Origin: a virus
UHGV virus genome: UHGV-0300374
DNA: 64,000 nucleotides
Reading direction: 5' to 3' (one strand)
Numbering within the stretch: the stretch's first letter is position 1; every line of letters starts with the position of its first letter. The notes below the pieces were generated by a model. That model was not told the origin of the DNA. It saw only the letters and a list, made by a program, of their open reading frames with translations, and did no database searches. A program made the position numbers and the translations under genes. Positions 1 through 21,325 of the stretch are shown here, in pieces.

Positions 1-2885
<2,885 letters not shown>

Positions 2886-11062: not shown

Positions 11063-12528
11063 TATTTATTTGCCTTATTTGCTGTGCTTGGGTCTTTCGC
11101 TGAAGGTGTCTTTGCAGTACCTTCTCCAGCGGTCTTATAACCATCTCCTGAACGGCTTTGGCTATTCGGAGAAAGCTTTTCAGATACTGGCTGAGACTCA
11201 TCAGCAGGAGGAAGACCAATATGCTCTCTAAGTTTGTTAGATAGCTCTTTGTCAACTTCCAAAGCACCTACTGCAACAGTCTTCTGAATATAAGAACCAA
11301 TTGCTTCAAGGTCTGGAGTTTCGATATCATCATATGTGATTTGTACATGTTCTTCATCATCCCACATATTAAGAGCATAAGTCTGTGCAACTAAGTCACG
11401 GTTAATTACGTTCTTAATTTGCTTCAGCAGAATATCTACTGACATTGCTAATAGACTTGTCTTAGAATCTGCAAGAGAGAATGAACCGTACTTTGACTGA
11501 CCCATAGCAAGAACATCTGACATAAATGCCATCATAATCTGCTTAGAATATCTGTCAATGATAGAGCCTGTGTCATATGCTTTAGCACCCTGTCTAGAAA
11601 CTAATGAGAACTCAAAGATATCCTCTTTAGTTTCTGGGTCGATATATCTAGGCCAGATTAAACCTGCTCTGTCATTAGCAATCATATCATTAACAACAGT
11701 TTTGCAGTATTGTACGAAAGCTTTCTTTTCAGGTTCTGCATTTTCATCCAGATAATCTGGTGGTAAACCAATCTTTGGCATACCTACTAAGTCTCTTGAA
11801 ACACCAACAGCTTCGTACTCTTCAATCTGTACTTTATACTTCCACGGTACATAAGCATTAAGTAATGGTGAACGACCTTCTGGATTTCCATATTCATCGT
11901 CATACTTAAACAGCATGAATTTAGCTCGTGGAAGTTTTCTTGTCAGTGGTCTTTCTCCGAGATTAATTGCTCCAGCAATATGTGAAACATTTCTCAGATT
12001 TTGTCTGACACCAGTAACTTTTCTAAAGTCTTCGTCAAAATACCACTTATCAAGTGTTGATTGGTTTCTGATTGGTAATTTAGCCCATCCAATTAAACCG
12101 TCATCAAATTTTGACTGGTACTTTCCTTTCTTACCCTGACGTTTCTTATAAACCTTTTCATTAACACAGAACCCATAAGTGCAGAATGACATTACAGAAT
12201 TAATAAAATCTGCCCAATCATGCTCCATGTCATCCATTAAAGAATTAAAGAAGTCTGCTCTTTCAAGCATTTTAGGGTCTTGCTCTTTTCCCTTTGGAGG
12301 TACGAATCTCCAGTTGACTTTTCTGACAAACATCTTAATAATATTTACAGATGCTGCTACAGCAGGGTCACGCATCATTAATTGGAAAGTTTTAATACTT
12401 TCAGGGAACCTTAGTGCCTGACGAGGTTCTTCATAGATTCTTCCATTCTTAACCTTCAGACCCAAAGAACCTACTTCACCCATCCTAAATGGTGGTAAGC
12501 TTTCTTGTGTTTCTGTAATATCTGCCAT
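11062..12528 (-). CDS. portal protein
   Basis: 488 aa ORF directly downstream of large terminase; size and position. Confidence 0.55.
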   Translation of the reverse strand: MADITETQESLPPFRMGEVGSLGLKVKNGRIYEEPRQALRFPESIKTFQLMMRDPAVAASVNIIKMFVRKVNWRFVPPKGKEQDPKMLERADFFNSLMDDMEHDWADFINSVMSFCTYGFCVNEKVYKKRQGKKGKYQSKFDDGLIGWAKLPIRNQSTLDKWYFDEDFRKVTGVRQNLRNVSHIAGAINLGERPLTRKLPRAKFMLFKYDDEYGNPEGRSPLLNAYVPWKYKVQIEEYEAVGVSRDLVGMPKIGLPPDYLDENAEPEKKAFVQYCKTVVNDMIANDRAGLIWPRYIDPETKEDIFEFSLVSRQGAKAYDTGSIIDRYSKQIMMAFMSDVLAMGQSKYGSFSLADSKTSLLAMSVDILLKQIKNVINRDLVAQTYALNMWDDEEHVQITYDDIETPDLEAIGSYIQKTVAVGALEVDKELSNKLREHIGLPPADESQPVSEKLSPNSQSRSGDGYKTAGEGTAKTPSAKDPSTANKANK

Positions 12529-14582: not shown

Positions 14583-14658
14583 AAAATAACTTGGAGAATC
14601 CGAAGGGACTCGAACCCTTATAAACCTGTTTTGCAGACAGGCACATAGCCATTTCTGT
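14583..14658 (-). tRNA. tRNA-Cys (GCA)
   Basis: Acceptor GAATCCG/CGGATTC, T-arm GGGTTCGAGTCCC, anticodon loop CTGCAAA, CCA encoded. Confidence 0.7.
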
Positions 14659-14662
14659 CACG

Positions 14663-14755
14663 GATTCAAATTGGAGGAAGATACCAGACTTGAACTGGTA
14701 CACCGATTTCTCAGCTACTGGCAGTTTAGCAAACTGCTCCCTTACCTTTTAGGGT
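14663..14755 (-). tRNA. tRNA-Ser (GCU), long variable arm
   Basis: Acceptor GGAAGAT/ATCTTCC, anticodon stem GCAGT/ACTGC with loop TTGCTAA, about 93 nt. Confidence 0.6.
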
Positions 14756-14766
14756 TAATCTTCCAT

Positions 14767-15501
14767 TTATTTCTGTAATGCGCTCTTCATTTCTGGTGTT
14801 GCAATAGTGTCAATCACACCAGTTTTACAGGCATCATCAAACCAGTCTGGTAAGATACCTGCTAAGAACCCATTGATATTCGTTCTAAGGTACTCTGCAA
14901 TAAGGGCAGCTTCTTCTTCAATCATCTGCACAACTTCATCTGCATAAGCTGTAATCTTTGAAATACCTTCATTAATCTTACTAACAGCCTGATTAGCTAA
15001 ATCAGAAACAGTATCAAGACCCTCATCAATAGCGTCTTGTAAGTCACTTAACACACCATTAACACTATCTAGTGTACTGTTAATCATGTCAATAGCTTTT
15101 TGACCATACTCTGTAGCAACACCCATAATACCACTGAATGGTGTACAACCAACTTGTTCTCCTGCTGCACCCATAACATTGGAGTATCCCTTTGCTACCT
15201 GCATACGTGATGAAAACTCATCAATAGACTTTTGACCGTAGTCTGTCAGGGTCTTAGTAGTTGCTGTAGTGCTTGTAAGGCTTGTTGTAAAGCTGTTTAG
15301 AAGGACTGTTGTAAGTCCAGCAGCAACAAGCTTATCTTTTACTGTAGGGTCTGATACAGAACTAATAGAGCTTACAAGTGATGTAGAGGCAGCTACGGTT
15401 CCACCGAGAACTGCTGCACCAGTAATAAGGGGGTTAGAAAACCCTTTACCAGTTTTTAAGAGATTAAAAATCTCCTTACCTTGTTCTGTCATCTCTTTCA
15501 T
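14767..15501 (-). CDS. hypothetical protein (Ser/Thr-rich N-terminal half)
   Basis: ORF-track start 15564 overlaps tRNA-Phe; internal ATG at 15501 has RBS aaaggtg and avoids the tRNA. Confidence 0.45.
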   Translation of the reverse strand: MKEMTEQGKEIFNLLKTGKGFSNPLITGAAVLGGTVAASTSLVSSISSVSDPTVKDKLVAAGLTTVLLNSFTTSLTSTTATTKTLTDYGQKSIDEFSSRMQVAKGYSNVMGAAGEQVGCTPFSGIMGVATEYGQKAIDMINSTLDSVNGVLSDLQDAIDEGLDTVSDLANQAVSKINEGISKITAYADEVVQMIEEEAALIAEYLRTNINGFLAGILPDWFDDACKTGVIDTIATPEMKSALQK

Positions 15502-15517
15502 TAAGCACCTTTGAAAT

Positions 15518-15594
15518 TGGTAGTCCAGTGGGATTTGAACCCTCTTCTCATGTTTTTCAGACACGCGCTTTAACCATATAAGCTACTTGGACTA
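15518..15594 (-). tRNA. tRNA-Phe (GAA)
   Basis: Anticodon stem CGTGT/ACATG with loop CTGAAAA; T-loop TTCAAAT; acceptor TAGTCCA/TGGACTA. Confidence 0.6.
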
Positions 15595-15599
15595 TAAAT

Positions 15600-15675
15600 T
15601 GGGGTGACCTACGGGATTTGAACCCGTATAGACCATGTTCACAGCATGGGTCATTACCATTTATGATAAGGCCAC
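15600..15675 (-). tRNA. tRNA-His (GUG)
   Basis: Anticodon stem CCATG/CATGG loop CTGTGAA; discriminator C; T-arm ACGGGTTCAAATCCCGT. Confidence 0.7.
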
Positions 15676-15706
15676 ATTTAAGGACTCTCGTAAGAATCCT
15701 TAGAAG

Positions 15707-15782
15707 TGGCAGCGGCATAAGGATTTGAACCTTAATAAGACAGCTTCAGAGACTGCTGCATTGCCAGTTATGCTATACCGCT
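15707..15782 (-). tRNA. tRNA-Gln (CUG)
   Basis: Anticodon loop CTCTGAA; T-arm TAAGGTTCAAATCCTTA; acceptor AGCGGTA/TGCCGCT. Confidence 0.6.
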
Positions 15783-15787
15783 AAATT

Positions 15788-15866
15788 TGGTACTCCATAT
15801 CGGATTCGAACCGATACATAACACAGATTTTAAGTCTGGCCTCTCTGCCAATTGGAGTAATGGAGC
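15788..15866 (-). tRNA. tRNA with Leu anticodon UAA (class-I-like short variable arm)
   Basis: Anticodon loop CTTAAAA, discriminator A, T-arm ATCGGTTCGAATCCGAT; variable region only about 7 nt. Confidence 0.5.
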
Positions 15867-15868
15867 AT

Positions 15869-15944
15869 TGGCGGGGGATGTTGGAATTGAACCAACTTCT
15901 TCGATTTCAAAGACCGAGGTTTTAACCTTGTAAACTAATCCCCT
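15869..15944 (-). tRNA. tRNA-Gln (UUG)
   Basis: Anticodon stem TCGGT/ATCGA loop CTTTGAA; T-arm GTTGGTTCAATTCCAAC; 1:72 mismatch. Confidence 0.6.
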
Positions 15945-15952
15945 TTAAATCT

Positions 15953-16510
15953 TTACTTTCTCAGTGGATGAATAAAGAATGCCAACATAACTCTTTCCCT
16001 TGAGAATGCTCTTTCTTCTGGGACAACACTTTTTAGTTTCCATCCAATATAAATTCTCCAGTAAAATTGTTTACCAAAGATTTTAATTGATGGGATAAAA
16101 GCGAATAATCCCCAAGCATTCCTGTTCCACATTAGGAGATAACCAGTCTGATTATCTTCAGGGTCAGAACTTACGTTGATATTACCTTTCCACTTAGTAA
16201 CATCTTTTACATCTCTTCCTAATACATGGTAAGAGAAGTTATAAGCTTTGTTTCTCCAGAGCCATCCGACTCTTTGCATGTAGACACCTAGTTTACCAAT
16301 CCATCTAATATTAGCCCATCTTTTAACGTGACCTTCATCACCATCAATTGGGTTGTCATATGTCTCCATCCATCTGAACCCGAAAGGTAAGTGTCCTTTC
16401 TTCTCACTGTAGAATGGAACTACAAAAGGTGCTAAGATAACTGCTAGTATTGCTGCAAGTGGTTCTAGCAAAGCTAAGAAAATCCATGAAGCATATTTTA
16501 AGTATCTCAT
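15953..16510 (-). CDS. hypothetical membrane protein embedded in tRNA array
   Basis: 185 aa; hydrophobic N-terminus WIFLALLEPLAAILAVILAPFVV. Confidence 0.45.
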   Translation of the reverse strand: MRYLKYASWIFLALLEPLAAILAVILAPFVVPFYSEKKGHLPFGFRWMETYDNPIDGDEGHVKRWANIRWIGKLGVYMQRVGWLWRNKAYNFSYHVLGRDVKDVTKWKGNINVSSDPEDNQTGYLLMWNRNAWGLFAFIPSIKIFGKQFYWRIYIGWKLKSVVPEERAFSRERVMLAFFIHPLRK

Positions 16511-16749
16511 TGTCTAACCCTCGTAAGGAGGTAAGCATTATTACTTGTTTCTGAGCTTTCTGGTAACATTGTCTCAAAATTGACACTTTTAAGTTGTCTT
16601 CCACCAAAGCAATGACCAATAAATCTTTCTACTTTTATTGGGTCGCATTCCCATCCGACTTTTAAGAAAATGTGGGTATCTATAGTGGGAACCCTTACAA
16701 ACTCAATACTATTGGGATTTTCATGTTCAACGACGATTAATGTTTGCAT
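16507..16749 (-). CDS. hypothetical protein embedded in tRNA array
   Basis: ORF track, 80 aa, 4-nt overlap with downstream ORF. Confidence 0.4.
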   Translation of the reverse strand: MQTLIVVEHENPNSIEFVRVPTIDTHIFLKVGWECDPIKVERFIGHCFGGRQLKSVNFETMLPESSETSNNAYLLTRVRQ

Positions 16750-16767
16750 AAATTCCTCTTGCTTATC

Positions 16768-16843
16768 TGGCGCAGGATAAGGGATTCGAACCCCTATTAA
16801 CAGTTTCGTAGACTGTTGCTCTATCCATTTGAACTAATCCTGC
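16768..16843 (-). tRNA. tRNA-Arg (ACG)
   Basis: Anticodon stem ACAGT/ACTGT loop CTACGAA; acceptor GCAGGAT/ATCCTGC; T-loop TTCGAAT. Confidence 0.7.
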
Positions 16844-16848
16844 AAAAT

Positions 16849-16926
16849 TGGTGTTCCAAGACGGATTCGAACCGTCACTAATACAAGGTTTGAGCTTGCA
16901 TCCTCTGCCAATTGGGATACTGGAAC
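16849..16926 (-). tRNA. tRNA with Leu anticodon CAA (class-I-like short variable arm)
   Basis: Anticodon loop CTCAAAC, discriminator A, T-arm GACGGTTCGAATCCGTC. Confidence 0.5.
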
Positions 16927-16927
16927 A

Positions 16928-17002
16928 TGGTACTCACTAAAGGACTTGAACCTTTTTCTTCATCTTGTAAGGGTGGTGTTTTACCATATAAACTAAGCGA
17001 GT
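16928..17002 (-). tRNA. tRNA-Val (UAC) candidate, weak anticodon stem
   Basis: Acceptor ACTCGCT/AGTGAGT, D-arm GTTT..AAAC, T-arm AAAGGTTCAAGTCCTTT, loop CTTACAA but only 3 of 5 anticodon-stem pairs. Confidence 0.4.
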
Positions 17003-17098
17003 GTGAAAGAGGTCTGAAGTTGTGCCGCTAACTCAACTCCGTGGAATTTGTTACGGTCTTCAGTTGACTCAAAGCGGTCTTTCACTTGACCTCTGAAT

Positions 17099-17174
17099 TG
17101 GTGCTCCCACAAGGATTCGAACCCTGATAAGTTGCTTACAAGGCAACCGTAATAGCCAATTATACGATAGGAGC
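17099..17174 (-). tRNA. tRNA-Thr (UGU)
   Basis: Anticodon stem GTTGC/GCAAC loop CTTGTAA; T-arm CAGGGTTCGAATCCTTG. Confidence 0.7.
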
Positions 17175-17181
17175 ATTAATT

Positions 17182-17256
17182 TGGAGCATCCAGAGGGAAT
17201 CGAACCCTCAACCTCAGTTTGGAAGACTGTAATTTTCCCGTTTAAACTATGGATGC
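17182..17256 (-). tRNA. tRNA-Gly (UCC)
   Basis: Anticodon loop CTTCCAA; T-arm GAGGGTTCGATTCCCTC; acceptor GCATCCA/TGGATGC. Confidence 0.65.
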
Positions 17257-17262
17257 ACTAAT

Positions 17263-17338
17263 TGGTGGAGTCACTGAGAATTGAACTCAGTTCCCAAGTT
17301 TGCAAAACTCGAATTTTAACCATATAAACTATGACCCC
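17263..17338 (-). tRNA. tRNA-Ala (UGC)
   Basis: Acceptor GGGGTCA with G3:U70 wobble; anticodon loop TTTGCAA; T-arm CTGAGTTCAATTCTCAG. Confidence 0.7.
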
Positions 17339-17344
17339 ATTGTT

Positions 17345-17420
17345 TGGTACAGGTGGAGGGAATTGAACCCATCGTCTTACTGATTAAGAGTCAGCCGCAT
17401 AACCATTTTGCTACACCTGC
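17345..17420 (-). tRNA. tRNA-Lys (CUU), copy 1
   Basis: Anticodon stem GCTGA/TCAGT loop CTCTTAA; acceptor GCAGGTG/CACCTGT; T-stem weak. Confidence 0.55.
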
Positions 17421-17427
17421 ATTAATT

Positions 17428-17505
17428 TGGTAGGAGACAAGGGATTCGAACCCTCAAACACCAACTTCTAAGGATGGTAGGTTTACCAATTACCGTCAAT
17501 CTCCC
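17428..17505 (-). tRNA. tRNA with Leu anticodon UAG (class-I-like short variable arm)
   Basis: Anticodon loop CTTAGAA, discriminator A, acceptor GGGAGAT/GTCTCCT with wobbles. Confidence 0.45.
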
Positions 17506-17761
17506 ATTAAATCTTTTTAGAGAACTTCTAAGAACCTAAGCAACAAGGTTCCACAACAAGCTGTAATAACCTTAGAAGCCCTCTAAAAAGACCTAAAAAG
17601 GTCTTTGCATAGTCTTGTTTAATCCGGTGACTAGAACCTTTGGAGAGCTTGATATTATCTCTTCTCCGTGACACCTACTAGGTGCTTTATCAGTGTGTAC
17701 GACAATACACGAGGGATACCAAAGCAACATCCGAATGAAGCTTGGCTTTAAAATCTTATTA

Positions 17762-17851
17762 GGCGGTAAGTAAAGGAGTCGAACCCTCACCGTATCTCTA
17801 CAGTGGCAACTGTTTTCAAGACAGTTTGGCTACCATTAGCCGCTACCTACC
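17762..17851 (-). tRNA. tRNA-Ser (UGA), long variable arm
   Basis: Acceptor GGTAGGT/ACTTACC, anticodon stem ACTGT/ACAGT loop CTTGAAA, about 90 nt, CCA not fully encoded. Confidence 0.55.
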
Positions 17852-17864
17852 CCTAATAAGACTT

Positions 17865-17947
17865 TGGCATGGGACGGAGGAGTTGAACCCCTTTGAAACG
17901 GTGTTGGAAGCCGTTGCTCATGCCTTAGAGTCTTAACATCGTCCCAT
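17865..17947 (-). tRNA. tRNA-Trp (CCA) candidate with extended D region
   Basis: Perfect acceptor ATGGGAC/GTCCCAT, T-loop TTCAACT, hairpin AACGG-CTTCCAACA-CCGTT carrying CCA; D region about 7 nt longer than canonical. Confidence 0.4.
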
Positions 17948-18089
17948 ACTATAATTCGAAGCTTACCGTATTATCTCAACACTGTAAAGCCCCTTCTCAG
18001 ATTATTTACATGTTCTGGAAAACATGAGATACAGACCACCTCCCTACAGGAAGACCCGCTTAGGTCGTCTAAGTAATCTGCTAACTAAT

Positions 18090-18166
18090 TGGCACACCCT
18101 ACAGGATTCGAACCTGTAACTAACGATTTAGAAGACCGTTGCTCTATCCAATTGAACTAAGGGTGC
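18090..18166 (-). tRNA. tRNA-Arg (UCU)
   Basis: Anticodon stem ACGGT/ATCGT loop CTTCTAA; D-arm GTTCAATTGGATAGAGC; T-arm ACAGGTTCGAATCCTGT. Confidence 0.7.
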
Positions 18167-18413
18167 ATTAATCTTTAAAGACTCTCTTAGAAAGCCCTTA
18201 AAGATGCCCACCTTATTAATCATACCGTGGGCTAGTACGCCAAATTCTTTGATGAGGGATTGGAAGACCTCACTGGTGTTTAGCCTATCAAGCTACTGCC
18301 AGAAAAACATTGTCGTTTGCATTTATTTTAAATTTGCAAAATAGACGCTACGCAACGAAAACTAAGGTTACTATAAAGTAGTCACATCTCAATGTCAACA
18401 ACTTTATTGAAAT

Positions 18414-18489
18414 TGGTACTGGTAGGTGGAATCGAACCACCAATGTTCCCTTATCAGGGGAGTGTTATAACCTTCTTAACTATACCAGC
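18414..18489 (-). tRNA. tRNA-Ile (GAU)
   Basis: Anticodon loop CTGATAA; T-arm GGTGGTTCGATTCCACC; acceptor GCTGGTA/TACCAGT. Confidence 0.65.
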
Positions 18490-18490
18490 T

Positions 18491-18567
18491 TGGAGGTTCA
18501 GATGGGAATCGAACCCACATTCATAGGGCTTATGAGACCCTTGCATTACCTTATCTGCGACTGAACC
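18491..18567 (-). tRNA. tRNA-Met (CAU)
   Basis: Anticodon stem AGGGT/GCCCT loop CTCATAA; acceptor GGTTCAG/CTGAACC. Confidence 0.65.
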
Positions 18568-18571
18568 ATAT

Positions 18572-18647
18572 TGGTAGAAGTGGAGGGAATTGAACCCATC
18601 GTCTTACTGATTAAGAGTCAGCCGCATAACCATTCTGCTACACTTCC
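18572..18647 (-). tRNA. tRNA-Lys (CUU), copy 2
   Basis: Anticodon/T-arm identical to copy at 17345-17420 but acceptor GGAAGTG/CACTTCT. Confidence 0.55.
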
Positions 18648-18653
18648 ATTAAA

Positions 18654-18793
18654 TTATCTTTGTAGATAAGCTACCCAGACTTGCTTAAGGTCTGTAGCGA
18701 TGTGCCTTTTTGGGTTTAAATCTAGAATTTACCCTTTCACCCTTTGTGGTCGCATACTCACAGGTAAGCTTAATAACTTATCTACAAAGATAA
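18654..18793 (-). ncRNA. structured spacer bounded by perfect 17-bp inverted repeat (candidate small RNA/processing element)
   Basis: ttatctttgtagataag at 18654-18670 and its exact reverse complement at 18777-18793, 106 nt apart; no tRNA fold, no credible ORF. Confidence 0.35.
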
Positions 18794-18829
18794 TTACCAG
18801 ACCGTTGTTTATCATCTTAAGTGCTACCA

Positions 18830-18878
18830 TTACACCAACTCGACATCTGCCGAGTGAAGGAATCGAACCTTCGCCTTT
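18830..18878 (-). ncRNA. tRNA-like minihelix/tRNA fragment (T-arm plus closed acceptor hairpin)
   Basis: GAAGGTTCGATTCCTTC T-arm followed by ACTCGGC-AGAT-GTCGAGT hairpin then a D-arm-like GGTGTAATGGTAGCAC; no matching 5' acceptor strand upstream. Confidence 0.35.
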
Positions 18879-18907
18879 TCTTTACCGAGAAATAGATTGT
18901 TTAAGTT

Positions 18908-18935
18908 TTGCTGTAAACGGTCTTCTGTAAATTTG
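18908..18935 (-). repeat. conserved 28-nt tRNA-spacer motif, copy 1
   Basis: ttgctgtaaacggtcttctgtaaatttg; identical copy at 19390 and variants at 18996 and 19566. Confidence 0.5.
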
Positions 18936-18995
18936 TTGAGCCAGACCAAGTTTTAAATTTTTCAAAATTAAATTGGCTTGAAATTTTAAGTAACT

Positions 18996-19015
18996 TGCTG
19001 TATTTGGTCTTCTGC
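18996..19015 (-). repeat. conserved tRNA-spacer motif, copy 2 (variant)
   Basis: ttgctgtatttggtcttctg. Confidence 0.4.
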
Positions 19016-19075
19016 TCCTTTAAAGGATACTCGTAAGAACCCTTTAAGGGAGGGGCTAAATAGCCCTCTCAAAAT

Positions 19076-19152
19076 TGGCGGTTACGAAGGGATTTGAACC
19101 CTCATCATCTCCCGTGACAGGGGAGTATTTTAACCAAATTAAACTACATAAC
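19076..19152 (-). tRNA. tRNA-Asp (GUC)
   Basis: Perfect anticodon stem CTCCC/GGGAG loop CTGTCAC; acceptor GGTTATG/CGTAACC. Confidence 0.7.
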
Positions 19153-19157
19153 CTTTA

Positions 19158-19246
19158 TTGGTGTGCCGTGTAGGAGTCGAACCTACCGAGTCTCAATGAC
19201 AAGGGATTTACAGTCCCCACCGCTACCATCTACGGGATAACGACAC
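19158..19246 (-). tRNA. tRNA-Tyr (GUA), long variable arm
   Basis: Anticodon stem GGGGA/TCCCT loop CTGTAAA; 89 nt; T-arm GTAGGTTCGACTCCTAC. Confidence 0.65.
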
Positions 19247-19255
19247 ATTTAAATT

Positions 19256-19332
19256 TGGCGGTTAGTCAGGGATTCGAACCCTGTGCCATTCGCTTAACAG
19301 GCGACCGCACATACCTTATGTGCTTCCTAACC
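19256..19332 (-). tRNA. tRNA-Asn (GUU)
   Basis: Anticodon loop CTGTTAA; D-arm GCACA..TGTGC; T-arm CAGGGTTCGAATCCCTG. Confidence 0.6.
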
Positions 19333-19389
19333 ATGTTTAGCATTACCAGACCGTATATTTCAATTTTTCCGCTAAAAATTTAATAAATA

Positions 19390-19418
19390 TTGCTGTAAAC
19401 GGTCTTCTGTAAATTTGG
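19390..19418 (-). repeat. conserved 28-nt tRNA-spacer motif, copy 3
   Basis: ttgctgtaaacggtcttctgtaaatttgg abutting the 3' end of the tRNA at 19416. Confidence 0.5.
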
Positions 19419-19492
19419 AGGCGGGTGCAGGAGTCGAACCTGCCGATACCATGCTAATGAGACATGTGAGACGCCCTTTCTCTATACCCGCA
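19416..19492 (-). tRNA. tRNA with CAU anticodon (second Met, initiator or Ile-lysidine type)
   Basis: Anticodon stem CATGT/GCATG loop CTCATTA; T-arm GCAGGTTCGACTCCTGC; 1:72 mismatch. Confidence 0.5.
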
Positions 19493-19565
19493 ATTCTTAA
19501 TGACCAGACCAAATATCTTCTTTGTCCGATTAACTTTCAGATGAGTAGATTAAGTTTGCTGTAAT

Positions 19566-19595
19566 TGGTCTTCTGTCAAAACTGGCGTTCCAGAA
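19566..19595 (-). repeat. conserved tRNA-spacer motif, copy 4 (variant)
   Basis: ttgctgtaattggtcttctgtcaaaactgg; minus-strand reading contains TTGACA. Confidence 0.45.
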
Positions 19596-19670
19596 GGGAT
19601 TTGAACCCTCAAATATCCACTTTGAAAGAGTGGTGACTTTACCATTTTGTCTACTGGAACATTAATTTGG
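19593..19670 (-). tRNA. tRNA-Glu (UUC)
   Basis: Perfect anticodon stem CCACT/AGTGG loop CTTTCAA; acceptor GTTCCAG/CTGGAAC. Confidence 0.7.
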
Positions 19671-19677
19671 TCTCTGT

Positions 19678-19754
19678 TGGAGGACTTGAACCTCCGGCCT
19701 TACCGCCCCAAACGGAACGCTCTACCAAGCTGAGCTAAACAGAGATAAACTTTT
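19678..19754 (-). tRNA. tRNA-Pro (UGG)
   Basis: Anticodon loop TTTGGGG with G37; D-arm GCTCAGCTTGGTAGAGC; T-arm GGAGGTTCAAGTCCTCC. Confidence 0.65.
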
Positions 19755-19909
19755 CAAACTCTATGTAACCACTTTAACATTATTTTTTAGTGGTTGTCAA
19801 GAACTTTTTTAAAATATTTTTCAGTATCTTAGAAAAGCTCTCGTTTCGTTTCTATGTAGAACATATTAAAGGGTATCAAACACATTGTCAATACCCTTTT
19901 TAAAACTTT

Positions 19910-21325
19910 TTACCAGATATAACGGTCAATCATTACTGCTTTGAGCATTACACTGATTGGGTCAAACTTCTCACCACCAAGCAGAGCTTTTAAAGTGGCT
20001 GGAGAGAACCCTGATACCATTGCTACACCATTATCCTTAACAGATACTTCGCAAGTACCATTACGGTTTGCTAAGTACCAGAATACCAGTTGTGGCATCT
20101 CATATCCAGCTTTTTTGTACTTACTCTGAATTGCTTCAAAGTTTGTACGACCGTTAGCTCCATCAACCTGATTGAACTCCATATCGGAGAAGATGATAAG
20201 CTTACTTGGCATATCTTTCTGAGTCAAGTTGTTTCTTTTACCTGTTTCAAGAATGCGGTCAAAAGCTGCTTGTAAGTTAGTTGAGCCATATTCAACGTGT
20301 CGCATCACCTGACGATGACGGTTTCGTAAATCACCACTCAGTTCGATGAAGTGAGGGTTTGTTGAATAAACCATTAACTCATTCTTAAAGCAACCTGTAT
20401 TGCGTTCTGCTACATACAAGGCAAGTGATACACCAATATCCAGAGCAGTAATGGAGCCAAAATTCACCCAAGACATCGAACTTGATACATCAGACATACA
20501 CAAGATGTTTTCACCTTCTGCCATCCAGTTTGGTAGTGCTTTCCACTGCTCATTAGCAACATCTGCATTACCATACTTGACAGATTTAATCACATCGTAT
20601 GGGTAAACAGCACCAGCGTTAATCTTAGTCTCACCTTTTGATAAGGACTCGATGTAAGCTTTGTAACGTTCTCCATCCTTACGGTTAAACAGTTTTTGGT
20701 AACGTGCAGCAGCAAGTGAAGGAACCTTACTGTAGTCAATCTTGCCAAACTCATTAGCAGAGATTTTTTGCTCAACTGTATCAGATAGTGCAGACAACAG
20801 TGTGCGGTACTCTTTCTCATTCAAGTTGGCAAACTTGCAGAAACGTTTTACAAACTGCTTATGACGTGGTTTGACTCGTGGTAGCCACTTGGCTGCCAAA
20901 CCTGCTGTTGCAGGGTCTAGTAATGCTGCTTCTAAATGTTTGAAGGCATCTGTCTCGAAACGAGTACCTACGAAGATTTTGAAGTCATCAAAACGACCAA
21001 GTTCTGCAATCTTATCCATAATGCGAAGAACCTGTGTAGGCTCTAAAACTTTATCTTCAATTGCTTGAAGCAAAACAGTTCTGAAGGCTTTACGCTCACC
21101 CATACCTTCTCGTACATCTCGCATATGCAGTAAAATACGAACTGCAACATCAACATCCTCATGCAAAGCTTTGTAGAACAGGTCTGGTAAGATTTCTACG
21201 TTGCTACGGCTTGAACCAGCAGCTTTGTAAAAGTCTACAAGAGCAGACATTGATGAAGTATGGTTTACAGCACCATTTTCAGTTCGACCTGCATGAAGGT
21301 GCGCATGTTTAAATAATTCGCTCAT
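19910..21325 (-). CDS. von Willebrand factor A (MIDAS) domain protein, possibly TROVE/Ro60-like (DUF2828-type)
   Basis: 471 aa; motif ENILCMSDVSSSMSW matches vWA MIDAS DxSxS after a hydrophobic strand; alpha-helical N-terminal part; immediately upstream of tRNA array. Confidence 0.5.
   Translation of the reverse strand: MSELFKHAHLHAGRTENGAVNHTSSMSALVDFYKAAGSSRSNVEILPDLFYKALHEDVDVAVRILLHMRDVREGMGERKAFRTVLLQAIEDKVLEPTQVLRIMDKIAELGRFDDFKIFVGTRFETDAFKHLEAALLDPATAGLAAKWLPRVKPRHKQFVKRFCKFANLNEKEYRTLLSALSDTVEQKISANEFGKIDYSKVPSLAAARYQKLFNRKDGERYKAYIESLSKGETKINAGAVYPYDVIKSVKYGNADVANEQWKALPNWMAEGENILCMSDVSSSMSWVNFGSITALDIGVSLALYVAERNTGCFKNELMVYSTNPHFIELSGDLRNRHRQVMRHVEYGSTNLQAAFDRILETGKRNNLTQKDMPSKLIIFSDMEFNQVDGANGRTNFEAIQSKYKKAGYEMPQLVFWYLANRNGTCEVSVKDNGVAMVSGFSPATLKALLGGEKFDPISVMLKAVMIDRYIW

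Follow-up and report, generated by a model that had tools for sequence, protein, structure and literature searches.

Candidate Y-RNA-like genes in the spacers of a Felixounavirus tRNA array and their association with a divergent Ro60-like gene

The window analysed here is a 64,000-nucleotide (nt) stretch of the virus genome UHGV-0300374, which belongs to Felixounavirus (Felix O1-like) and is 97.8% identical to Enterobacteria phage KhF1 across its whole length. Its minus strand carries an array of 26 canonical tRNA genes (14592-19744; ARAGORN) with embedded open reading frames (ORFs) and long structured spacers, as a preliminary description made from the sequence alone had reported; 407 phage records match the region, the majority of them from Felixounavirus. 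Four of the tRNA-free spacers contain one RNA module, in three short copies (58-68 nt) and one long copy (125 nt), and directly upstream of the array lies a gene for a Ro60-like protein. The preliminary description rightly flagged the spacers as structured; the repeated genes within them, which resemble both Y RNAs and the Class I RNAs of Dictyostelium, were not recognised. The Ro60-like gene paired with these RNAs sits just beyond the region which that description covered. The features of the locus are as follows.

19910..21325, minus strand: Ro60-like protein gene, 471 amino acids (aa), directly upstream of the array; Pfam DUF2828 and DUF7788; PHROG 850 "RNA-binding protein"
19771..19891, minus strand: two sigma-70-like promoter matches between the Ro60-like gene and tRNA-Pro, TTGACA-17-TAATAT and TTGACA-18-TAAAGT, each 10/12; consensus matches only
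19583..19744, minus strand: tRNA-Pro(UGG) and tRNA-Glu(UUC) (ARAGORN, Rfam)
19501..19578, minus strand: short element 1, core 19505-19570, GACCAA-UUACAGCAA...UUGGUC-UG; occupies the whole Glu-Met spacer
19416..19492, minus strand: tRNA-Met(CAU) with an atypical D arm (ARAGORN)
19343..19412, minus strand: short element 2, core 19347-19404, GACCGU-UUACAGCAA...ACGGUC-UG; occupies the Met-Asn spacer
19076..19332, minus strand: tRNA-Asn, tRNA-Tyr and tRNA-Asp (ARAGORN, Rfam; Tyr by ARAGORN only)
18938..19017, minus strand: short element 3, core 18942-19009, GACCAA-AUACAGCAA...UUGGUC-UG
18794..18930, minus strand: long element 4, core 18798-18922, closing module around a permuted tRNA-like domain (pattern scan and fold)
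18648..18797, minus strand: 150-nt structured spacer RNA with a closing stem of about 24 base pairs (bp) and an inner mini-hairpin, CAGAC-CUUAAGCAA-GUCUG, at 18676-18694
18414..18647, minus strand: tRNA-Lys(CUU, chimeric), tRNA-Met/Ile2(CAU) and tRNA-Ile(GAU) (ARAGORN, Rfam)
18167..18413, minus strand: 247-nt spacer with the best promoter match of the region, 18370-18398 (11/12), after tRNA-Ile, and a structured 3' part
18090..18166, minus strand: tRNA-Arg(UCU) (ARAGORN, Rfam)
17865..17947, minus strand: non-canonical tRNA-Trp-like gene (ARAGORN mitochondrial mode)
17762..17851, minus strand: tRNA-Ser(UGA) (ARAGORN, Rfam)
17099..17505, minus strand: tRNA-Leu(UAG), Lys(CUU), Ala, Gly and Thr (ARAGORN, Rfam)
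17003..17098, minus strand: 96-nt hairpin spacer containing UGAAGACCGUAACAAAUUCC, with AGAGGTC/GACCTCT ends
16768..17002, minus strand: tRNA-Val, Leu(CAA) and Arg(ACG) (ARAGORN, Rfam)
15953..16749, minus strand: two embedded ORFs, 80 aa (PHROG 14202) and 185 aa (DUF7338, hydrophobic N-terminus) (Pfam, PHROGs)
15518..15944, minus strand: tRNA-Gln(UUG), Leu(UAA), Gln(CUG), His and Phe (ARAGORN, Rfam)
14767..15501, minus strand: embedded ORF, 244 aa, DUF7217 (Pfam)
14592..14764, minus strand: tRNA-Ser(GCU) and tRNA-Cys (ARAGORN, Rfam)

The module consists of a 6-bp closing stem that invariably starts with a G-C pair, a (U)UACAGCAA motif immediately after the 5' strand, an A-rich interior, and a UG directly after the 3' strand; in the window its parts run in the order 4-bp helix, AGAA, GACCNN, (U/A)UACAGCAA, variable stretch, NNGGUC, UG, and the partner strand of the outer helix. 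A search with the pattern AGAAGACC...GGTCTGG gives three matches where none is expected, and a scan permitting longer interiors adds the fourth copy. The Glu-Met and Met-Asn spacers are taken up almost entirely by elements 1 and 2, respectively. The outer flanking helices covary among the short copies (TGAC/GTCA in element 1, TTAC/GTAA in element 2, GAGC/GCTC in element 3), and that of element 1 spans the AGAA/UG internal loop. As a family-wide feature this flanking helix, H1, was rejected, being paired in 47% of cells, about the level of a slid control; H1 is therefore specific to Felixounavirus and a few other lineages. R1, a covariance model built from 39 short elements and used with a viral search space of 1.1 Mb at a threshold of E<=1, matches only the three short elements in the window, with 48.9 bits for element 1 (E 4.9e-7), 49.9 bits for element 2 (3e-7), and 41.3 bits for element 3 (2.4e-5). 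ARAGORN detects no tRNA features in the short elements, all three of which are also carried by phage Bas63. In the public records examined (KhF1, Bas63, and relatives) the spacer RNAs are unannotated, and some records instead place short opposite-strand "hypothetical protein" ORFs over them. A hairpin ribozyme, suggested by the AGAA internal loop together with GGUCUGGUA, was rejected; the opposite strand carries UG and not N^GUC, there is no loop B, and Rfam gives no ribozyme match.

Element 4 is a tRNA with a closed acceptor end and with the module in place of the anticodon stem. Its inserted domain comprises a V hairpin (18874-18895), a T arm of canonical sequence (18856-18872; GAAGG-UUCGAUU-CCUUC), an acceptor-like stem-loop (18838-18855), and a D arm (18821-18835); the acceptor-like helix has 7 bp and is closed by a 4-nt loop (ACUCGGC-AGAU-GUCGAGU). 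This helix reads ACTCGGC/GTCGAGT here; its counterparts in relatives from Mooglevirus and Suspvirus are ACCCTTC/GAAGGGT or ACACGT/GCGTGT, with unchanged T and D arms. This covariation was not imposed by the search. In the copy from the Citrobacter phage Michonne (L282, about 300-431, minus strand) the loop closing the acceptor reads GCCAAACA, which is a discriminator plus CCA and a short trailer, followed by the 5' acceptor strand. By analogy with what is reported for YrlA of M. smegmatis, this copy could acquire an exposed tRNA-like CCA end once cut by RNase P and trimmed.

The module exists as a widespread family that is specifically tied, in position and in strand, to Ro60-like genes. Two sets of loci bear on this: a viral set of 80 loci encoding homologues of the Ro60-like protein, five of them from Felixounavirus and the other 75 with proteins 39-47% identical, and a second set of 80 loci from bacterial and archaeal genome assemblies, none of which entered the training of R1. 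A scan of the viral loci for a 6-bp stem followed at 3 nt by CAGCAA, then an interior and the returning stem strand with UG behind it, yields 131 matches (11 after shuffling), almost every one of them on the gene strand. Because such a scan favours paired sites, CAGCAA sites were also counted without that selection: of the 459 that lie on the gene strand in the 75 non-Felixounavirus loci, 79 have a perfect 6-bp partner followed by UG, compared with a stem-swap mean of 8.5 and with three of 377 sites on the opposite strand (Fisher p 1e-18); the partnered sites concentrate within the kilobase immediately before or after the gene. R1 finds 88 matches at its threshold in the viral loci and 58 in the genome loci, every one on the gene strand (146/146 in 155 loci; binomial p 2e-44) and mostly adjoining the gene. 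The association also holds in reverse. An 18-nt pattern blind to the gene has 122 matches in the viral collection, 44 with a stem partner and 78 without; the gene is present in the fetched stretch for 18 of the former, all co-oriented, and for none of the latter (p 7e-10). Among 39 aligned phage elements the first pair of the closing stem is G-C in every case, and the other five pairs vary freely.

Further forms were observed at these loci. A second class of long elements (L008, L009, L012, L015, L016, and L028; e.g. L008 7277-7371) has the same closing module around a different conserved insert, CCUUUCUGGAGGGGAAAG...AAAAACUCGCC, which replaces the tRNA-like domain, and a third long class measures 150-215 nt (e.g. 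L054 7480-7643). The orphan motif freshwater-1 (RF02979) occurs above its gathering score, at 82.7 bits, on the plus strand of a contig from a Micavibrio metagenome-assembled genome (L229 1007-1068), inside an array of tRNA and Class-I-like genes immediately upstream of a DUF2828 gene. A phage-encoded transfer-messenger RNA (tmRNA) lies on the gene strand within a few kb in L023 (8605-9054) and in L030, L037, and L059 (about 13.8-17.1 kb).

The stop codon of the Ro60-like ORF (19910-21325) lies 340 nt before element 1, and the window elements follow 0.34-1.1 kb downstream on the same strand. The AlphaFold2 model of the protein, built with 36 homologues, has a predicted local distance difference test score (pLDDT) of 89. 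Its 12 best Foldseek matches in the PDB are all Ro60/TROVE structures, including the Ro60 of Thermus phage phiLo (E 4e-8 to 4e-6; template modelling score about 0.5-0.67), with alignments spanning about 510-560 columns; by sequence there is no match in the PDB. The MIDAS residues D279, S281, S283, T349, and D381 (DxSxS...T...D) are invariant in the 36 homologues. The protein thus models as a divergent Ro60 type, with a TROVE-like helical-repeat domain followed by a vWA/MIDAS domain. It is 97% identical to gp130 of Bas63, which is reported to be Ro60-like and to counter the Ppl defence system (PhageMaP preprint).

Bacterial and phage Rsr proteins with YrlA and YrlB (Chen et al. 2014, PMC4201824) and the Ro60 of Thermus phage phiLo with Yrl1/Yrl2 (PMC12135203) provide the closest comparison. 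Published hallmarks of YrlA and YrlB are a V-T-acceptor-D order, same-strand proximity to a Ro60-type gene, and the occurrence of long and short forms together; canonical Y RNAs are encoded beside rsr on the same strand. The window likewise has a Ro60-fold protein with several small RNA genes adjoining on the same strand, all within the distance used for YrlA (about 4 kb of the Ro60 gene). Its long element has the V hairpin, T arm, acceptor-like stem-loop, and D arm in YrlA order and is accompanied by shorter forms without the tRNA-like domain; like Y RNAs, the phage RNAs are modular, a conserved stem-plus-motif module standing next to a variable one. Long elements of other loci give full-length YrlA matches of 24.7-38.9 bits, below the gathering score of 69. 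Unlike known Y RNAs, those of the window are embedded between tRNA genes. Phage tRNA clusters also carry stable RNAs of unknown function, such as the species 1 and 2 RNAs of T4; as in T4-type clusters, non-tRNA RNAs appear to lie within the tRNA transcript here.

As judged from sequence, the spacer elements probably serve a divergent phage Ro60 as its cognate Y-like RNAs and are freed from the array when the tRNAs are processed. The RNAs would be transcribed within the tRNA precursor, for which promoter-like sites lie at 19771-19891 and 18370-18398, and excised by the enzymes that process the tRNAs on either side (RNase P, 3' trimming). The Ro60-like protein would then bind the module of stem, UUACAGCAA, and UG as Ro60 binds Y RNAs, and the RNAs may gate, regulate, or retarget it, in the way that Y RNAs act on Ro60; the long form could offer a tRNA-shaped handle to tRNA-binding enzymes, factors, or nucleases. 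The setting may be RNA quality control or counter-defence, the latter being suggested because the near-identical gp130 counters Ppl.

A second comparison leads outside the prokaryotes. Class I RNAs of Dictyostelia are abundant, developmentally regulated RNAs of about 42-65 nt with a 6-bp terminal stem that has an invariant first G and otherwise covaries freely, a conserved 11-nt motif (CCUUACAGCAA) adjoining the 5' strand, an interior that varies, and AAG...CUG(U) termini; they are reported to be absent outside Dictyostelia, their mechanism has been unknown since 2004, and their known protein partner is Rnp1A, which contains an RNA recognition motif (RRM) (Kjellin et al. 2021, PMC7919456). The phage elements have a 6-bp end-joining stem with an invariant 5' G (the elements having been selected for pairing), a (CC)UUACAGCAA-type motif after the 5' strand, an A-rich interior, AAG...CUG termini, and a length of about 60 nt. 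Their consensus reads AAAG-NNNNN-(U)UACAGCAA...A-rich...-CUG (46-70 nt), that of the Rfam Class I family RF01414 GaUcuC-CUUACAGCAA...A-rich...GagAuC-UG, and a curated D. discoideum example GTTGAC-CTTACAGCAA...GTCAAC-TG. Both families include a few long members with an inserted structured domain (two among the curated D. discoideum RNAs). RF01414 aligns over its full length to eight short phage elements, with boundaries identical to those defined independently and scores of 17.8-30.8 bits: 17.8 for element 1 (19505-19570), 20.5 for element 2 (19347-19404), and 25.9-30.8 elsewhere; the working cut-off of the discoverers of Class I RNAs was at least 25 bits plus the stem (PMC7919456). Conversely, a sequence profile of the phage elements recovers 24 of 26 D. 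discoideum Class I RNAs in register, compared with 5% of shuffles. The two differ in that the gap between stem and CAGCAA is 3 nt in the phage elements and 4 in Class I, and in that the former have phage or bacterial hosts and no DUSE promoter (the Dictyostelium upstream sequence element, found about 60 nt upstream in Dictyostelia). Four proteins have been pulled down with a Class I RNA (DdR-21); for a DUF2828 protein among them or elsewhere in Dictyostelium, peptide searches over a fraction of the proteome (supplements of Kjellin et al.) and literature searches gave no match. The architectures appear to be the same, and the sub-threshold scores can be read as homology or as convergence. It is conceivable, if rather doubtful, that the phage and bacterial RNAs and the Class I RNAs form one family, serving the DUF2828 branch of Ro60-like proteins as cognate "Y RNAs".

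Several observations weigh against the assignment of the spacer elements as Y-like partners of the Ro60-like protein and against their wider grouping. By sequence the protein matches only DUF2828 and DUF7788 and, unlike Ro60, not Pfam TROVE (PF05731). The canonical Ro-binding motif (GGUCCGA in animals, GNCGAAN0-1G in YrlA) is absent, UUACAGCAA plus the 3' UG standing in its place; the YrlA model (RF02553) has no match in the window at E<=10, the RF01414 gathering score of 41.5 bits is reached by no phage element, and Rfam 15 assigns no family at threshold to any of the elements. R1 has no match at E<=1 in 20 of the 75 viral loci and 36 of the 80 genome loci. The closing stem lacks the G-U pairs that would prove pairing at the RNA level and was itself selected for complementarity, so that counting its covariation is circular; the weight is carried by the site, strand, reverse-test, and genome-locus controls. 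Finally, gp130 alone, on a plasmid or in the T7 genome, restored growth of T7 on a Ppl strain (PhageMaP preprint), hence the spacer RNAs are not needed for the anti-Ppl phenotype; they are more likely to be modulators, or to serve another task such as quality control of phage tRNA precursors.

The genome loci admit a further objection, since there the element usually lies just upstream of the gene (most matches within about 300 nt, same strand), as would also suit an element acting in cis on the Ro60-like gene or the tRNA operon, be it an autoregulatory leader or a processing or stability signal, rather than an RNA acting in trans; the window elements are likewise predicted to lie inside a polycistronic tRNA transcript. 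This explanation is considered unlikely: the elements of the window and many viral ones follow the gene at distances of up to 1.1 kb, in three to five copies and with tRNAs between the gene and the elements, the long copies bear an elaborate tRNA-like domain, and canonical Y RNAs adjoin rsr on the same strand in just this way. Similarly unlikely is that the elements are independent small RNAs whose CAGCAA loop acts elsewhere, as a sponge for a host protein or by base-pairing, and which are inherited together with the gene through a shared accessory tRNA module. That gp130 counters Ppl without them, that the Dictyostelium look-alikes bind Rnp1A, and that tRNA arrays often accompany the gene would all fit; but the element also stands beside the gene in loci without any tRNA (e.g. 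L024, L014, and L018), and its link to the gene is the tighter one, the element occurring in 55 of the 75 viral loci and tRNAs, always on the gene strand, in 33.

Decay of tRNA genes, or leftovers of rearrangement without a function of their own, is already disfavoured and very improbable. The long element does have T-arm and D-arm sequences, tandem tRNAs can mimic YrlA, and gene conversion occurs in the array; yet the acceptor-like strands pair with one another and covary, the short elements are free of tRNA features, and the module is kept in phages whose Ro60-like proteins are 35-47% identical, also outside tRNA arrays. That the elements are DNA-level repeats (promoters, terminators, or recombination or homing sites) is hardly credible, despite homing endonuclease genes inserted into these spacers in some relatives and a weak promoter-like match overlapping element 2, given the absolute strand bias relative to the gene, the conserved asymmetric single-strand motifs beside a stem of freely varying sequence, and the lack of terminator-like T-tracts at the elements.

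No prior description of these spacer RNAs was found in Rfam 15 or in the literature searched, the nearest being the speculation in the PhageMaP preprint that, downstream of gp130, "some tRNA genes are possibly Y RNAs". The array is already known; what is new is the Y-RNA-like family in its spacers, the likely protein partner, and the structural match to an orphan eukaryotic RNA class. The elements provide concrete candidate RNA partners for a phage Ro60-like protein that defeats Ppl, and they belong to a family widespread in phages and bacteria whose spacers public records mostly leave blank or cover with spurious small ORFs. If the spacer elements are indeed cognate Y-like RNAs, the Ro60/Y RNA principle would extend to a second, sequence-divergent lineage (DUF2828) with a different recognition motif, and phage tRNA arrays could act as production lines for non-tRNA small RNAs. 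The link to Dictyostelium Class I RNAs points to a protein family worth examining there. Should the phage and Dictyostelium RNAs prove to be one family, a Ro-like protein of RNA surveillance would have the Class I RNAs as its partners; these would have an origin in common with phages that infect the bacteria on which amoebae feed, or would have been acquired from such phages, and plants and other eukaryotes with DUF2828 genes might hold undiscovered relatives.

The tRNA genes themselves follow the pattern of Felix O1-type (Ounavirinae) arrays, gene order and content matching the annotated relatives. The annotations of KhF1 (26 tRNAs) and Bas63 list the same genes in the same order, hence the array as such is standard for Felixounavirus. 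The estimate of about 27 tRNA genes in the preliminary description agrees with automated prediction, which gives the 26 canonical genes and one atypical gene, and the specificities it listed match those of ARAGORN exactly, save for Trp, which is not among the canonical calls. The complement is accordingly near-complete as had been proposed, with 19 amino acids served by canonical genes, provided that Trp is left to the atypical gene only. The gathering score of the Rfam tRNA model RF00005 (29 bits) is reached by 24 of the 26 genes (33-65 bits; E 6.5e-12 to 4e-3), the calls of Tyr (19159-19246) and Met (19416-19492) coming from ARAGORN alone. A 3' CCA is encoded in 25 of the 26; the exception is tRNA-Ser(UGA) (17762-17851, minus strand), which also has the lowest Rfam score of the array (33 bits). 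The preliminary description proposed that such a set may confer translational autonomy or resistance to tRNA-targeting nucleases. In a genome-wide knockout study of the near-identical Bas63, tRNA genes were mostly non-essential on four laboratory hosts (PhageMaP preprint).

The questioned Trp gene is a real element (17865-17947, minus strand), albeit a non-canonical one. It has a 7-bp acceptor stem, the anticodon CCA, discriminator G73, and an encoded CCA, together with an oversized, aberrant D region and a C31-A39 mismatch; it is called only by the mitochondrial mode of ARAGORN, is missed by standard ARAGORN and Rfam, and is without annotation in KhF1 or Bas63. A counterpart in the distant relative L007 (about 11990-12060) shows compensatory changes in the acceptor stem, as read by eye. 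ARAGORN finds no further tRNA in the spacers. The two Lys-CUU copies do share an identical body and differ in their acceptor stems: the second gene (18572-18647, minus strand) is chimeric, with an acceptor stem and position 13 that match tRNA-Lys(UUU) of KhF1 and Bas63 and with positions about 14-68 identical to the other Lys(CUU) gene (17345-17420, minus strand). This looks like the product of gene conversion, which would have cost the phage its Lys-UUU tRNA. The three protein genes placed inside the array belong to real families, namely DUF7217, DUF7338, and PHROG 14202.

The tRNA-free spacers noted earlier exist, with measured lengths of 83, 90, 96, 238, 247, 256, and 428 nt. The inverted repeat recorded in one of them, AGAGGTC (17088-17094) with GACCTCT (17008-17014), bounds a hairpin of -30 kcal/mol (z = -3.7). 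On its minus strand, at about 17045-17064, UGAAGACCGUAACAAAUUCC resembles the 5' half of the module, and in spacer 17946-18089 (minus strand) degenerate look-alikes of the module strands, AGACGACC...GGUCUGUA, occur at 18028-18070; both spacers are without CAGCAA and without an R1 match, and the look-alikes may be decayed or diverged module copies. A kink-turn or hammerhead, considered for CUGANGA in 17003-17098, was rejected, with no supporting structure and no Rfam match. Also rejected was a tmRNA in spacer 18167-18413, where weak partial Rfam matches overlap tRNA-Ile only and ARAGORN finds no tmRNA.

The spacer RNA at 18648-18797 (minus strand) has a minimum free energy of -48.3 kcal/mol (z = -6.3). 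In Michonne, SUSP1, and Sf17 both its closing stem and its mini-hairpin have changed in compensatory fashion, and the remaining interior is unalignable; the mini-hairpin CAGAC-CUUAAGCAA-GUCUG looks like a minimal Class-I-like module. In the Bas63 annotation the region is covered by two ORFs of the opposite strand, bas63_0137 and 0138. Two copies of a 22-nt hairpin, AAGGRUUCUUACGAGWRUCCUU, lie on the minus strand, one at 19023-19044 in the spacer between tRNA-Asp and element 3 and the other at 15680-15701, where it makes up the whole Gln-His spacer; the hairpin could be a processing site. Long and very stable hairpins lie directly upstream of tRNA-Leu(UAG) (17506-17640, z = -4.5) and tRNA-Arg(UCU) (18167-18300, z = -3.7).

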